Source: Ascidiella aspersa
Taxonomy: Eukaryota
Direction: 5' to 3'
DNA: 64,000 nt
Assembly: GCA_963924565.1 (NCBI GenBank)
Contig: OZ004607.1
Span: forward strand, 39,308,001-39,372,000
Position numbers and translations under genes: made by a program. The notes under the pieces are model-generated. The model ran no database searches. It had not been told where the DNA came from and saw nothing but the letters and a program-made list of their open reading frames with translations. This document shows, in pieces, positions 10,201 to 46,018 of the stretch (positions are counted from its first letter, which is position 1; each line of letters begins with the position of its first letter).

Positions 10201-11005
10201 CTGTCTTTTAGAAAAATTGATTTTTTTTGGTTAACTTAGCTTAAAGCATTTGCTATATACACTTACATACAACGGGGATGTATTAATATAAAATACTGGA
10301 TGGACTTCGGAAAAGATTAATATCAACTTAACTGCAATGTTGACTTGTTTAAGGTTCTATACAACTAAATTAAAAAAACAAGTTTAAATTAAACGCATTA
10401 TTAATCTACAATTTCTTAATAAAATTCAAAGTTTTATGCACTTAAAAATATATACTACTGACAGCTGACAACTAAAAATGTTTCTCAAAAACTTAACTTA
10501 GTTTAAACGGAGCCCAACTCAACAAAACACTTTTACCAGAACTTTTCTAAAACAACGTCACAATGCACTTTCTACGACCTCAAAACAACCAAACAAAGTA
10601 CCACTGAACAATCTAAACAACCTATTTCTATTCTGTAAAGCGCAAAACATCTCAAAAAGTATGACCAAAAAATCTACTCCTATTCTGTAAAGCGCAGCCA
10701 GAGGCATCCGGTTTTTATTTCTTTCCACGCGTGAGTTCGAGTGATCGCATTACAGAGGGTTGCCACAGTTGGAAGTAGCTTCCCACAGTTTAAACTGGGG
10801 TGGGGACCTAAGGTGTGTAAATACGCGATATTGGCGCGTGACGACAGATCAATGCGAGGTCCTATCTTCGCCAAACAGCCACGAGACGCCAGATTTACCA
10901 ACGCGGACCCGGCGACGCGCGGTCTCTGCCTGTTACGTCACAAAAGAACTCCCGGTAACGTCGAGTTTGGTCAAAAGGAATACTGAAGGTTATCTTTGGA
11001 GGATA

Positions 11006-11232
11006 ACCGCTCGAGGTTGCAGTTAAAAGCAGAAGGAATGTCAAAACAGAAGTAGGAAGCATTTTGAACGTTTCGAATAGTTGTTCACTCATTTTTAATA
11101 TCAGATCTGTGTTCACAAAATACTATCTACATCTCTATGGGCTTTGATATTCATTCTACGGCCAACTACAACCTCCAGCAATTAACTTAAGATTTATTCG
11201 AAACGCTCATAAAACGCAAACTTCTTCTGTAT
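11006..11232. mobile_element. Family B repeat, inverted + tandem units
   Basis: Same ~90-bp unit (CAGAAGTAGG..TTGAACGTTTCGAATA; TGGGCTTTGATATTC..CTACAACCTCCAGC) in both orientations. Confidence 0.6.
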
Positions 11233-12227
11233 GGGGTAGAATATTAAAGGTCAAACTTAACATAGCCTTGTGTGACATCACAAGTGGTCCGTGACATCAC
11301 AAAGGCGTACGGAAGTGTGTTTTGGTTTGAATGGCATAGCGGCGTGTTGGCTTGGCTTCCTGTGCTACAGACAAGGAGGGTTAGAGTTGACTTATAAGGT
11401 TAAGTTTTGCGCACGAGACAAACCCACGTTAGTATAGAGTGGCTCGACCTTGCTTGACGCAACTCATACCCGTCTGAACATTTCTATTGGGTCTTGTATC
11501 GGAAAACCATCAGGAAATCCGAATTACGGGATTCTGAGTTCGATTTTGGTACTTTGATTTCGGATTTTTTAAGGTTTTGATTGGTTAACGGTAACATATT
11601 TTAGGACCCGCAACCCTTTTATATAAATATGTAAAAATACTTTAGTGGCTAAAACAAATTTGAGTTTAATATTTTAAGAGTTTGGGAAACCGTTTCAAAA
11701 CACCCTTCAAAAACAGTACATTATTACGTTTAACATTTAAAATGAAAAGCGAGTTTTCTTGTAAAGTTTTACTTAAAAATGGCACTCGACTTTTCCGTTT
11801 ATTACAAAATAGAAATCTACTCGCTCTACGGATTCAGGACTTTTCAAAAAAATCTGTAAAATCAGTATTCGGCACGTTTTGATTCCAATTGTGCAAACAC
11901 GCCGCAAGTATAATCTCCTTTCCTCGTAAAACAATAAAATTCAAGTCAGTCACGATTAGGAAACGGGGGGCAATAAATCAGCAACAGATTTCGTTTCGAC
12001 AATTTCGTGGAAATATCGACCTTTTAGCTTTAAATTAACGTCATTAAAACATAAAGCGTTAATATTGCAATATCCATCTCACTGCCAACTAGTATATGAA
12101 TCCTAATATATTTACTGCGGAAACATGCAGAAATCTAACATGAAGAATGAATTTAAAGATCATACAGATGTACACCTTACGTGTGAAGGTTTCAAATCGT
12201 TCTTTGGTCATTTTAAATTTTAGATTT

Positions 12228-12930: not shown

Positions 12931-13152
12931 CAGCATCCGACACCAGCCTTTAGATGTGGTGATCTACTTGAGCGCACGTGTTGTGTGGCCTTATGTTGTG
13001 AGAGTTGTGGCTTTCTGTGGAGCCAGTTTGCTCGCCGCTGCAATCACGTTGACGCCAGAAGTAATGTGGACGTGAAACCACCATGGCACGACTCAAACTT
13101 AGTTTAAACTTCAGAATAAAACAGCATATCTTTGTGGCAAAACTAAAATAAA

Positions 13153-13275
13153 TATGAATATCGAAGCCCATACAGAAGTGAGTAGCATTTTGTGAATGTT
13201 TCGAATAAATCTTTATTCATTTTCAACATTGATGAAAAACCTGCTCAACTTCTCTATTAGCTTTGATTTTCATTA
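13153..13275 (-). repeat. Family B repeat with UUGAAAA hammerhead-like core
   Basis: Minus strand UG-UUGAAAA-U-GAAUAA-agau-UUAUUC-GAAA-CAUU (13228-13195); CG>CA change in stem III. Confidence 0.55.
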
Positions 13276-24139: not shown

Positions 24140-24310
24140 AAGCCCATACATAAGTAAAGGTAGCATTTTAAACGTTTCGAATAACTCTTTATTGATTTTC
24201 AGAATCGAAAATGATGTTGAAAATTGAATAAAATTATTCGAAACCTTCAACATGCTTGCTACTTCTGTACGGGCTTTAATACTCTTACTACGATTTACAA
24301 CGTTCAACCA
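24140..24310. mobile_element. Family B repeat, inverted pair
   Basis: AAGCCCATAC...AACGTTTCGAATAACTCTTTATT followed by the inverted copy GTTGAAAATTGAATAAAATTATTCGAAACC...TACTTCTGTACGGGCTTT. Confidence 0.65.
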
Positions 24311-24689
24311 TCACGCTCAAAAATCGCATGTTTATTGTTAGAGTTGCAAACAAAAATAGAAATCCCGTTTTGCCTGCAATGTTACTCTCTTAAAATTGTC
24401 AAAATACCCCTTAGGGGTGGAAACTACTGCTCTAAAATCTACAAGAGTCCCGTTTAGTCGAAAGTCGTGCGCATATTTCCCACTTTGGCTGCATAAATAC
24501 ACCCGAGCGATATAATTAGAGTCCAATTTGACGCAAGTGAGAGTTGGCATACCTCGGCCGCACCAACACTTGTCATTTAACCACCAACCTGCAATTTAAA
24601 CAGACCTCGTTTGCTGAAAAAGCCAACATAGCAAAGTGCCCAGGAATCGACGTTTAACCTTACTGTCGTGTTATTATAACGCTGTAAAT

Positions 24690-30685: not shown

Positions 30686-32174
30686 AATTTAAATTTCGCA
30701 AAACATAGTTAACGGAAGTTTTTGTATAAAAAGGAACTAAAAATATAAAAAAAATCAAAGAGCCTGTCAAAAAATCGCAGGTAGCAGTCAAAAAGATACC
30801 TAATCGCAAATATAAGCATTTCTTTCCGCAAAAAGCCAACAGAAAATTACACATAAAAGCAATGAATCATATTACAAATTTAAACACAACAATGGCACAA
30901 AGCATAAACAGCAAAAAATAATGACAATAGGAATTTCCTCAATTCTACCGATAACCCTTTTCGATTAATTTCCTTTCAAATTAATCCAAGGCATACATAT
31001 GGAAAACTGACAAATCCAGTTTTCGGCAACAAGCTCAATTGAAAAACCTCGACAGAGATAACTAAGTGGGAATTTCCACGTTTTCCAACAAAAACACCTC
31101 GTCCAACTAAAACCGGGTCCAATTACATCTTTAACGCAAGTCAATCAATTTAAGATCAAAGCACATCGGTAATCTCGGTGAAACAACAGCCAATATCTGC
31201 TGAACAAACCAAATAACCGCCCAAAAGTCTGTCGCTGGTGAGATACAACATCAGAACGTGCACGAAAATGTCTGGTGTGCTACTCGCTTGTTGAACACAG
31301 CAAGATAGAATAGCCCGGGGCTAATATAAAGCCTTCTTCGTTTAAAGCCAAGATGAGTCCACTTTTAGCGTGGAAAGACGACAGAAAATAATGGGCGTTG
31401 CTGCGCCTGAAGTGTGATGTCATTAATTTGAAAAATTCGTTAACAAATTACATTACACGTAAATGTAAACAAATGTCGCTTTTATAACTACAACTAAAAA
31501 TATTGTTTTATAAGAAAAAAAATATATATAGCGTAAAAAATATAAACTTCGTCAAAAAACTAGTAGTTCGGGCGAATAAATTTCACTCTGATTAACGAAA
31601 GTAGATTTACAACGTCAAAAAATCCGACTTCGCGACAACCTTAAAATTGTGAGCTACAGCTCACATAAAACTAAGTTCCACCAAGTTGCCCTTAAACATA
31701 CGACAACCGAAAAAGCGTCGGTGGACAACTTAGCATAAAAATGGCTTAAAACACCTTTACAGATTATAATTAGTTTTTTTTTATAATAAACATCAATTAA
31801 ATTAAATTCAAGTTTGTCAACATAATGCTGGAGGTCATATCAACAACGTCAATTAGCGCTAATCAGCATTTAATTGTATTATGGCGTCGTGTTTAGATTT
31901 CCCACTGAGTGAAATTCCCACGATGGATGTTTGATCCGGAAACCTTAACAAGAAATGCAACTCAGGTGATAAGCGGCAATATCCCGCCTACACATCAACG
32001 TGTACAAAGGAAATGGACGCAGATGGCGTTTGACCTCCACAACACGAACTCTTACAACGCATAAGTGATAGTTACTTGAATCTTATCAGCATAAGATAAA
32101 CTAAGAAAAAAAATCGTGACACATCATTTTACAAAAAATTATGACATTATATTCCGATAACGATACGCGATATT

Positions 32175-32378
32175 TTTTGGAGCATAATGGTTGGAGGTTG
32201 TAGTCAGACGTAATAAGAATATCAAAGCCCATACAGAAGTAGGTGTCGTTTTGAACGTTTCGAATAACTCTTTATTCATATGAAAATGAATAAATGTTGA
32301 AAATGAATAAAGAGTTATTCGAAACGTTCAAAATGATACCTACTTCTGTATGGGCTTTGATATTCTTATTACGTCTGA
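32175..32378. mobile_element. Family B repeat: ~75-bp inverted arms with a U3-A8 hammerhead-like motif, flanked by a 12-bp direct repeat
   Basis: Arms 32204-32279 and 32303-32378 are near-perfect inverted repeats. UUGAAAA-U-GAAUAA-agag-UUAUUC-GAAA-CGUU at 32297-32328. ATACGCGATATT occurs at 32163-32174 and 32379-32390. Confidence 0.7.
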
Positions 32379-32992
32379 ATACGCGATATTATTAACAAAA
32401 AATCACGATTACATATCAATTGACGTCATTTTCAACCTTAAACAGAAAAATTGATGAAATTGATACATTCAATGGTATGTTTTACATGAAATTAGGTTAA
32501 AATTTGTCTTTGTATTAAAAAGTTTAGTTACGTAGAGTTGTTTACGTAATTTCAAAGTAGAAATCGTTTTGTTGGATCGTAAATCATTGCTGCACTTCCC
32601 ATATCAATTTGGTATCGGATCGGCACCGATACCAGCCGAGTATCGGACGAGGAACGATACTAACACTTGGTACCCGGTATCGGCTCCAATCCGACATTAT
32701 CGCGCATCCATAAAAACAATTTTTTTGCCATCTCAACCAGATAAAGTCAAAAAAGCCATACATAGTACATACTGTACGCCAGCAAAGCAGACGAGTTCAC
32801 AATAAATTTTTAACAGTAGCAATTTATTGCGTTCTAGGTTTCTCTCCTACAATAATATTCAATGTAAATTATTTCCAGCATAAAAAACTCAGTAAATATG
32901 CAAATCTATTCCTTTAAACAATTCAACTATAATAAAATAGCTCCGATAGATTTGCTAACATGTAACAAGGAGTAAAAAACACGCATATTTAA

Positions 32993-37787: not shown

Positions 37788-38060
37788 GGCGCTCTTTCAC
37801 TATTGTACGTAAAAATTTAAAAAAAAAAAACTTTCTTCAAATGCCGCATACCACAACACATATTGTTTGGGTTAGGGTGCGGGTTAGCGTTTGGTTGAGG
37901 GTGGGTCAAGTTAATATTAATAATAAACATAATATTACTTGACCCACCCTCACCCAAACGCTAACCCGCGCCCTAACCCAAACAATATGCGTTGTGGTAA
38001 GCGGTATTATTATTATTTTTTTTTTGCATAACTTTTCACGTACAATAGTGAAAGAGCGCC
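37788..38060. mobile_element. Palindromic GGCGCT-terminated MITE (Merlin-like by GG ends and 8-bp TSD)
   Basis: TIR GGCGCTCTTTCACTATTGTACGT; almost the whole element is a hairpin with GGGTTAG-like repeats; TSD TTAAACCA/TTAAACCT. Confidence 0.85.
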
Positions 38061-42391: not shown

Positions 42392-45300
42392 TTATTCAAC
42401 CATCATTCTCGGAGCGATAGACATAGACATTAGCTCCTGGAAGAGCAATTTACAAGCATATGGCAGTTTGACTTGCGAAATACGAGTTTTGTTTTTACAA
42501 CCTCGACACTCGAATGTGTGCGAGCGAAGATTTGCAATCGCAATCAAGCCGCAAAGGTTACAAACGTGAACTCGATACGGGTCAGAGGCTTCGAACAAAC
42601 GCTCACGGAGAAACTGAGCCGCTCCGTGAGCGATCTGACAATCTCTCTCCATCTCTCCAAACCGAAGACCTCCGTCTCTTGATCTTCCTTCCATAGGTTG
42701 TCGGTTAAGAATCTGCACCGGCCCTCTCGCTCTAGAGTGGATTTTATCGTCCACCATATGCTTCAACCTCTGGTAATAAGTTGGCCCGAAGAATATCTGA
42801 GTGTTCATTTTTCTTCCAGTGTGGCCGTTATACAGCACTTCGTTCCCTCGCTGCTGATATCCATACTCGTACAGCAGGTTTGAAATCTTCTGCACATTAA
42901 CCGTGTCGTTAAACGGGGTTGCGTCACCAATCTCACCCTTGTTTGCAGAAACTTTGCCTTGTAAACACTCGATAAGATGGCCAATGGTCATTCTGGATGG
43001 GATGGCGTGTGGGTTTACGATGATATCCGGCTGTACGCCTTCACAAGTGAACGGCATATCTTCTGCTCTGTAAGTGATGCCACACGTTCCCTTTTGCCCG
43101 TGACGACTGGCAAACTTGTCGCCGATCTGTGGAATTCTCACCGAGCGTACCCTGATCTTGGTGAACTTGTAACCATCCTGATTGATGCTCACCATCACTT
43201 GATCCACGATTCCAGTCTCACTCGTTCGGAGGAAAGTCGAAACATCACGCTTCTTGTACTTTGTGGTCGATCCTTCCAAATCATCCTCATTTTCTGGTAA
43301 CAAAACAGTTTTGCCGATGACGACATCGTCGCCAGAAACACGGATTCCAGGAGAAACCAAACCATCGTCATCCAGTTTATCGTAAATAGCGTGTCTCATT
43401 CCAGAGCAGGTCGCTCTCTCCGGGCGCTCAAAAGTTTCCTCTTGATTGTACGCGCTCTTGTTTTCGGCATCTTTGTACGAACGATAGAACACAGATCTGA
43501 ATAATCCGCGATCAATTGAGCTCTTGTTTACAATAATAGAGTCCTCCTGATTATATCCAGTATAAGAAGCAATAGCTACGATCACATTAATGCCTGCTGG
43601 AAGCTCTCTAAAGCGCAGATACTCCATTGATCGAGTTGTTACCAAGGGTTTTTGAGGGTAGTACAGCACATGGGCAAGAGTGTCCATCCTCACATGGAAG
43701 TTAGTAATGTAAACTCCCATGGCTTGCTTTCCCATGGCACTTTGGTAAGTGTTCCTGGGAGACTGGTTATGATCAGGAAATGGAATAATGGAGGCACAGA
43801 CTCCTAAGATCATGGCAGGGTGAATCTCACAGTGGCTGTAAGTGCTGCAGTATTGTTCCCCCTTATCCTGCAAATCCTCAGGGAACATGGCAAGCATGAT
43901 TGTTTCTTCCTCCAAAGGATCAATGTACTCCACCACGCCGCTAGCAACAAGATCTTGCCAGCTGTAGTTGTTATACTCCTCCTTTAAAAGATCAATGTGC
44001 TGCTTCTTTAGAAGAAGTTTTTGTTCTTCAACAATCAAGAGTGGCCGGCAGATTCTCCCAGCATCCGTGTAAATCCTAATCTCGCGCTCCCTAATGTCGC
44101 GAACCATCGAAACTTCAGACACAATGATGTCCATTTGTCTTCTCAGTTTTCGCAGCGTATTCATGAGCTGCTCCGGGTCACGATGTATTCCAACCCAACA
44201 TCCATTAACGAAGATCTTTGTCGCGTGCGCAATTGCAGAAGGTGAAATCTCCTCTAAGTTTTCCATTGACCATTCCTCCAAGAACTCGAGGATAGGACTT
44301 GGCTGCGATCCAACAGAGATGTAAGCCATCAGAGCAAGGTTTTTCACCAAACCCACAGCATGACCTTCAGGTGTTTCAGCAGGGCAAATCATACCCCAGA
44401 GCGAGTTGTGCAACTGACGCGGTTTAGCGAGCTTACCATCTCTTCCGATTGGAGAGTTAAGTCGCCGAAGATGTGACAAAGTTGAAGCGTATGTGAGTCG
44501 ATTTAACACCTGGGAAACTCCAGCTCTGGCCTGGTGAGCTTTTTTCTGATCTCCCCAATTCCCAGTGGCTAAAGAGTACTTTAATCCATCGGTTATAATC
44601 CTGGTCTTAATTGCAAGCTCAAGGTTAAAATCCTTTCCTCTGTCGATAAACTTTTGTGCATAAAGCCGGACTTCTTTCATTAAATTCTTAAAGAGGCCTC
44701 TGAACAGAAATGCAAGTAACGGACCGGCCAGATCAAGCCTCTTGTTGCCATAGTGATCACGGTCATCCAGCTCTCTTCTCCCGAGAGCTGCGGATAGAAG
44801 TCGATGAACCATGTAGCCAAGGAAGTATGCCTTCTTAGTTTCACAATAATCGCTGATACCAACATGAGGCAACATCTCCTTCTGTAAAATCTCCTTCGCA
44901 TACTTTATCCGCTTTTCTTTGGTAACACCAGGCTTGGCTCCACGGGATCCGATAAAATTGAGGGCAATGTTTTGCTCCTGAATCACAAAAGCCTCATCCA
45001 GTGATGGTTTAACCATTTCCATCATTTCAGGATCGTCAAAATCGTAAATCACGTGCTCGAGAATGTCACGATCCGACACAAACCCAAGCGCACGGAAAAC
45101 AATGATGATTGGGATTTCTTGGCGAATGTAAGGAATGATTGTGGTTATTCTTTGACCAATTGCACTTTTCTTAACTCCCTGCCCACCCCTTGCCAACATG
45201 TTAACCCACATTGAGCTAGTGGGCCTGGAACTATTTTCTAAACAGCTTCTGATTTCACTTGTGAAGGCATACTTTGAGTCTTTCTTTTTGAAGACGTAAA

Positions 45301-45916
45301 CGGTATTGGCAGCCATTTTTTCTTGGGCAATTAAAACCTTTTCAGAGCCGTTAATAATGAAATAACCACCAGGATCAAGTGGACATTCATTTAACTCTGT
45401 CAAATCTCTGTCCGTGAGTCCACTTAGCAAGCAGTAGGTTGAGCGAAGCATGATCGGAATTTTACCGATAAAAGTTTTCTGGTGTTGTGTTTCAATCGGG
45501 TCGCTATTGGCCTTGACAATTGTCTTTGTTATGTCAACGTACAGTGGTGCAGAGTATGTTAAATTCCTCAGTCGTGCTTCGTTGGGCATCATCGGACTCG
45601 GAGCTCCATCTTTTTCCCAATGAGTGGGCTTCGACAAATAGATCTGCTCGAATTTAATGAGGTATTTTGTCGGAGCGCTAACCTCAGTGCTTGTATGCTG
45701 TGCTTCTGCTTGAAGTTCAATGATCGGAGCGTCTTCCACGATCCTCTGTACTGACATTTGGATGAACTCGTCAAATGAGTCGAGTTGTTGCCGTACAAGA
45801 CCTTTTTCGTCGAAGTACGAGCTGATAACGATCCAACACGCCTCCTGCCATAAATCGGGCGAAATCTCATTTTCTTCACCCTGAGTATCCATTTCTTCTT
45901 CGTCATCATACATCAT
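42392..45916 (-). CDS. POLR2B: DNA-directed RNA polymerase II subunit RPB2, single-exon CDS, 1174 aa
   Basis: Full-length uninterrupted ORF with RPB2 motifs ([39 protein letters not shown]-terminal CxxC...CxxC zinc site, [20 protein letters not shown]). Confidence 0.99.
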
Positions 45917-46018
45917 TTTTGCCTTTACAATGATACTATGACTGAAAAAATCTGTAAGGAGTACATTTCAAAAAATTAATCAATGCCTAAATACAAATAT
46001 TAGCTTTTAACAACAGTT

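Follow-up and report, generated by a model that had tools for sequence, protein, structure and literature searches.

The abundant repeat family B in the window (the whole stretch of 64,000 nucleotides analysed here) probably consists of head-to-head stub insertions of the pLTR and ORF start of an autonomous Penelope-like element (PLE), with the motif that they carry being the parent's own minimal hammerhead of the U3-A8 type; we propose that the stubs originated by run-off of reverse transcription. Both the motif and the element type are already known. What family B adds is a large, young set of copies with an intact parent, which makes several questions on PLEs testable: at which site transcription begins, if the template is cut by the ribozyme, and how ends come to be inverted.

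The best copy in the window contains the string UG-UUGAAAA-U-GAAUAA-agag-UUAUUC-GAAA-CGUU-CA reported in the initial annotation. Its inverted arms, put there at about 75 bp, are 80 nt long and 96% complementary (32200-32279 and 32303-32382); the flanking 12-bp direct repeat and the tail on one side only, which is the left, were also found. With +1 as the A of the first ATG in the parent ORF, the parts of this copy and three older relatives are as follows.

32163-32174, no strand: target-site duplication, left copy, 12 bp (from the sequence)
32176-32279, minus strand: tail-bearing arm, parent +10 to +113; the 5' half of the core is absent; differs from the intact parent L175 at 4 of 104 nt
32176-32203, minus strand: PLE 'tail' (+86 to +113), on one arm only (from copy comparison)
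32280-32293, plus strand: junction filler, 14 nt, mostly a short sense duplicate of +5 to +17 (from the sequence)
32294-32378, plus strand: tail-less arm, parent +1 to +85, its first base exactly that of the first ATG; 2 differences in 85 nt from L175
32295-32330, plus strand: predicted minimal type I hammerhead, with features as in PMC4209133
32295-32296 and 32329-32330, plus strand: hammerhead stem I, UG with CA
32297-32303, plus strand: hammerhead core U3 to A9, followed by the extra U at 32304
32305-32320, plus strand: hammerhead stem II, 6 bp
32321-32323, plus strand: hammerhead G12-A13-A14, followed by the palindromic ACGU at 32324-32327
32328, plus strand: predicted hammerhead cut, after this U
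32379-32390, no strand: target-site duplication, right copy (from the sequence)
13151-13232, minus strand: older family-B arm that retains the core; helix III is altered and CA follows the triplet as an insertion
24140-24322, no strand: older head-to-head family-B copy, decayed motif
10995-11245, no strand: older multi-arm family-B copy, decayed motif

In the computed fold of the best copy (-131.9 kcal/mol, z = -23.8) the 80-bp hairpin buries the hammerhead motif. All ten places assigned to the family in the initial annotation (about 228, 8073, 11006, 12228, 13153, 22783, 24140, 25655, 32175 and 54644) do match family B, and a weak eleventh match lies at 1249-1309; the whole motif, however, is present only in the arm at 32294, with helix III altered in the arm at 13232, an extra U and CCU in that at 24214, and the 5' core absent or lost in the other window arms. 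An older variant of family B, in which CA follows the triplet directly as an insertion, is represented by nine distinct arms, among them 13151-13232 and those of L338 and L339. Across the 308.6-Mb genome a 30-mer over the core has 800 exact matches and a 25-mer in the tail 1005, the reversed controls giving 0 in both cases, and more than 1000 short copies stand against few long ones. That family B is more successful than family A does not follow, the 800 matches being to a 30-mer and the 531 of family A to a 21-mer, which are not comparable; family A itself (window 490, 15061 and 17714) carries a C3-G8 minimal hammerhead.

Judged by its sequence, the motif fits every published feature of the PLE minimal hammerhead, the U3-A8 variant included, so that the U3-A8 reading of the initial annotation holds. 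It combines a complementary 3-8 pair with G12-A13-A14 (UUGAAAA...GAAA), an extra U at 9/10.1, G10.1-C11.1, a 6-bp stem II, a palindromic helix III (ACGU) and a NUH triplet. According to PMC4209133, PLE minimal hammerheads have an extra base between 9 and 10.1, G10.1-C11.1, a long stem II and a palindromic 15.2-16.2, lie in pLTRs and occur mostly as truncated singles or opposite-strand pairs, all as here; a U3-A8 core is reported there for Schistosoma (Cercyon). Family B differs from that description in its stem I of 2 bp, where 4-5 bp is typical and a 2-bp helix I is reported for D. virilis, in the coexistence of GUC and GUU alleles, and in an inferred start that precedes the core by 3 nt, with no sign of an intron. 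Of 227 young arms, 155 carry the triplet GUU and 70 carry GUC; the two intact parent ORFs read GUC, and near-intact long copies also occur with GUU. An Rfam scan of the window returned no hammerhead at E<=5, only hairpin-type miRNA matches below the cut-off.

The covariation that supports a hammerhead lies, on comparison of the sequences, between families and not within family B. The earlier argument that stem II is kept while its loop varies rests on three copies and fails, since among 289 arms spanning +3 to +60 no covariation was found and the core and stem II show the same decay as other positions of the arm (in the 62 older arms G5 is kept in 69%, G12 in 73% and C11.1 in 63%). At the same ORF position a sister PLE has CUGAUGA (C3-G8), a 5-bp stem II of other sequence and the same ACGU, and families A and C have C3-G8 cores, other stems and palindromic ACGU or AGCU. 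Two caveats raised in the initial annotation stand: stem I (UG/CA) has only 2 bp, and the GUU form has its energy minimum in a fold with UUGAA mispaired to UUCAA. Cutting by the motif is predicted for the dimer only. In modelling, that hammerhead dimer reaches -1.7 / -2.3 kcal/mol, far weaker than the best dimer fold (-18.2 / -14.2 kcal/mol) and weaker than its counterpart in three other PLE families.

The autonomous partner that the initial annotation expected to share this terminus is present in the same genome. Walking upstream from L053 through copies that extend past the motif led to an intact PLE encoding a reverse transcriptase (RT) with a GIY-YIG domain, of which the arms are the first ~85-113 nt of the ORF, in keeping with the postulated Penelope origin. 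A protein search gave two intact ORFs of 840 aa (L175:3634-6153 and L176:3382-5901), each lying between direct copies of the arm spaced 2666 nt from one another; the parent unit is 2666 nt long, and its hammerhead core overlaps the first codons of the ORF. Pfam recognises RVT_1 (E=1.8e-9) and, under the cut-off of 22.6 bits, GIY-YIG (E=7e-4, 20.2 bits); the alignment shows DKG, the CCHH residues and a pair of cysteines flanked by GIY and YIG, and one cysteine lies in the RT-EN linker. The parent has the features of EN+ PLEs, i.e. pLTRs, partial tandems, an inverted 5' copy and an optional tail, and is 43% identical to the sister PLE over 844 amino acid columns. A search on the GIY-YIG family found other PLE families, the parent not among them. 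A tandem array of the parent (L177/L178, G000:C9:23.485-23.496 Mb; period 2671) has a C-terminal frameshift in all units, and in its ribozyme C11.1 is changed to U. C3-G8 hammerheads were also seen in at least four further PLE families (L179/L180, L181, L183 and L063-L080), some of which have intact ORFs of 790-850 aa. The natural U3-A8 / C3-G8 sister pair, together with the GUC and GUU alleles, could be used for cleavage assays.

The anatomy of the insertions was analysed on 180 tail-selected loci (90 from each of two sets of 100 among the matches listed), or 165 after removal of 15 duplicates; 17 of 104 inverted arms that were not adjacent or too short were left out, giving 87 inverted copies, and of 141 pairs, 11 that did not show the pattern with a single tail were left out, giving 130 pairs, a set that mixes searches and is enriched for long copies. 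Duplications of at least 8 bp flank 55 of the 87 inverted copies (3 of 435 shuffled-flank controls), with lengths of 8-16 bp and a mode of 12 bp (26/87), and 14 of 61 single-arm copies. Tail-less arms end at +78 to +86 in 104 of the 130 pairs, whereas the tail, the criterion by which loci were selected, reaches about +110 to +113; these two end zones fit the pair of internal sites at which RT starts in vitro according to PMC11167929. The filler, the centre and the length of the arms vary from copy to copy, some stubs (L237 and L216) continue into the ORF past the tail, and most have no upstream TATA-like box. Family-B stubs show the insertion pattern that PMC3846280 and PMC8557442 describe for PLEs.

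A DNA-transposon MITE with a hammerhead-like centre arising by chance, which the foldback shape, small size and many copies could bring to mind, is refuted and has next to no probability, in line with the initial annotation: the single tail, the asymmetric and variable arms and the variable duplications follow the PLE pattern, fixed symmetric terminal inverted repeats and a constant-length duplication are not seen in family B, and the arms have sequence identity to an RT and GIY-YIG element. A non-autonomous family, as put forward in the same annotation, which would be self-propagating and of retrozyme- or SINE-like type, cut by its hammerhead and mobilised in trans, is largely refuted and very improbable. 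The excess of short over long copies, the roughly 2:1 preponderance of GUU over GUC in young arms when both intact ORFs have GUC, and the ability of pLTRs to act in trans (PMC3846280) would speak for it. Yet the copies share no unit, none of their ends concentrate at the cut site, GUU also occurs in near-intact long copies, two stubs extend into the ORF beyond the tail, and the arms are the parent's terminal repeat and ORF start, mostly without a TATA-like box. Non-LTR retrozymes (bioRxiv 10.64898/2026.07.22.740005) are likewise non-coding, hammerhead-bearing and derived from PLE pLTRs, but are head-to-tail tandem units with one ribozyme per unit; such units bounded by the cut site were not found among the family-B stubs, which are dispersed, head-to-head and of no fixed unit.

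The 5' ends of the arms point to how the stubs arose. Of 252 such ends, 58 lie exactly at +1, compared with 1.6 per position over +5 to +60, 93 lie within 3 bases of +1 and 25 farther upstream; +1 is the first A of the ORF, 3 nt before the hammerhead core. The base preceding +1 is G in 22 of the 28 tail arms that end there, where the template has U (32% expected, p=5e-7), the single-arm copies among them accounting for 10 of 14; G mostly stands before a second end as well, 2 nt upstream, and the two together, with one mirror case dropped, have G in 25/32, against 24/108 for other ends. In the tail-less arm of the best window copy (32294) this base is A, not G. What we take to be a TATA-like box lies ~30 nt upstream of +1 in families B, A and the sister. 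An untemplated G has been attributed to cap copying for L1/SVA (PMC3287187), and PLE transcription starts lie in the pLTR (PMC2377424, PMC8557442 and PMC6765202). The extra G at the end of the stubs is likely a copied mRNA cap and hints at their mode of origin. The expectation that copy ends would map after GUU did not hold: 6 ends fall at +34 to +36 (P=0.35), and in the 30 of 197 targeted loci examined the junctions scatter over +28 to +41 with no pile-up at the cut site. A splice acceptor as the origin of the +1 end was considered and rejected, there being no AG before +1 and no shared upstream sequence.

In 30 loci each of family A, the sister and family C, selected on stem II, short ends 6-14 nt upstream of the core make up 14/24, 10/14 and 9/25, respectively, and are preceded by G in 3/14, 5/10 and 2/9; because this excess is weak or absent, the G signature is firm only for family B. 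Cap-derived or untemplated G, twin priming and ends at the start site were not found stated for PLEs in the literature searched, which included few subscription papers.

The two arms of a copy mostly agree in their allele at +35, differing in 7 of 63 cases (28.6 expected if independent), which leaves an origin of the arms from independent parent copies unsupported. Start-site ends pair with start-site ends in 30 cases, upstream with upstream ends in 14, and mixed pairs number 2 (p=5e-10, in a set enriched for long copies). In 35 pairs it is the tail arm that extends further 5', in 60 the tail-less one, and because either can be the longer, one-way snap-back, as described for R2 in PMC11371274, is disfavoured. 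Two cDNAs copied from one RNA, or from sibling RNAs, at the same end fit better than snap-back or the antisense self-priming proposed for PLEs in PMC3846280, although mixtures are possible.

The stubs are likely run-off cDNAs of capped, uncut sense RNA, as argued by the stop at +1, the extra G and the lack of a cut-site pile-up. In the mechanism we propose, RNA polymerase II would begin either at +1 or 2 nt before it, ~30 nt downstream of the pLTR's TATA-like box; the PLE protein would nick both target strands ~12 bp apart, and reverse transcription would be primed at two internal sites, about +80 and +112, i.e. the two ends of the tail. Where the primed site is near the RNA 5' end, the cDNA would run off after at most ~113 nt, often copying the cap as an extra G, and a foldback would result when two of these cDNAs are linked head to head through filler; the ribozyme would have left most templates uncut. 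The stubs themselves are likely to lead no further, most having no promoter and inverted copies like that in the window folding over the ribozyme.

A competing account accepts the same parent and motif, but ascribes the +1 pile-up to a structural stop or fold-back of the RT at the 5' edge of the hammerhead, or to antisense self-priming, and the G to plain untemplated addition or slippage at the ATG. We consider it unlikely, if distinctly less so than a non-autonomous family. The usual sharing of the +35 allele is what self-copying predicts, several junctions are ATG-ATG or palindromic, and the three other families have no clear G excess; set against these, the G also precedes single-arm copies and the second end and is infrequent at other ends, a stem I of 2 bp poses no barrier, the longer arm may be either of the two, and families B, A and the sister have a TATA-like box ~30 nt upstream. 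A further reading concerns activity only and is compatible with the run-off account: the hammerhead may be one by descent that no longer cuts, kept as protein-coding or RT-binding sequence. This is the less shaky of the alternatives but still doubtful. The 2-bp stem I, unfavourable dimer and competing fold, the lack of cut-site ends and the overlap of the motif with an ATG-initiated frame are all consistent with it, as are the ribozyme mutants that leave PLE insertion in vitro unaffected (PMC11167929). However, positions 3 and 8 have changed as a pair, stem II has been re-paired and the palindrome kept across families whose peptides differ there, and a related PLE ribozyme cuts with its protein present (PMC11167929).

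RNA reads (run X6, raw, same species label, about 6% read; 1289 reads placed) concentrate on the first ~170 nt, 94% of them continuing into other sequence, and have zero depth over the 5' ORF (L175 3804-4308); they are stubs read through in host transcripts. In this portion of the run there was no place where many molecules begin or end. Loose ends at +1 occur in 80 reads, in agreement with the DNA junctions, and loose ends exactly at the cut site, +36, in 43; the C/U difference at +35 and the CA-insertion subfamily (9 arms) may explain the latter.

The closest known systems share much with family B. EN+ PLEs of Penelope/Poseidon type with an inverted, 5'-truncated pLTR (Adineta Pen2a, PMC3846280; overview in PMC8557442) likewise have a ~840-aa RT with a C-terminal GIY-YIG, a pLTR over the first codons with a TATA-like box, one ~30-nt tail, head-to-head inversion, 8-16-bp duplications and tandem arrays, whereas family B is distinguished by an extreme excess of ~110-nt stubs that stop at one point with an extra G, and by data that favour sense templates in contrast to the antisense self-priming proposed in PMC3846280. 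PAc Poseidon of Anolis resembles family B in that stem II begins with an ATG, an AC-rich tail lies ~110 nt inside the ORF, two ends match two RT start sites and the ribozyme cut site has no ends, but it has a C3-G8 in place of a U3-A8 pair; short run-off copies and cap copying are not described for it in the available text of PMC11167929. Whether the stubs can be taken as a fossil record of the Penelope reaction we regard as an even question; such a record would comprise a capped start 3 nt before the hammerhead, an RT that copies the cap and uses uncut RNA, and head-to-head repeats that arise when two sense-strand cDNAs are started on one RNA end, at the two sites bounding the tail, not by antisense self-priming. 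If so, solo PLE hammerheads in animal genomes would largely be run-off products primed at the tail's 5' copy, and two templates could be paired through the palindromic helix III.

Two other features of the window may be recorded. A single uninterrupted frame of 1191 aa, apparently intronless, occupies 42392-45967 on the minus strand and resembles what we take to be the RNA polymerase II subunit RPB2. At 37851-37998 there is a near-perfect hairpin of ~150 bp with GGGTTA-like units and sub-threshold Rfam miRNA matches, which is probably another foldback repeat because similar sequence occurs in the flank of L453.
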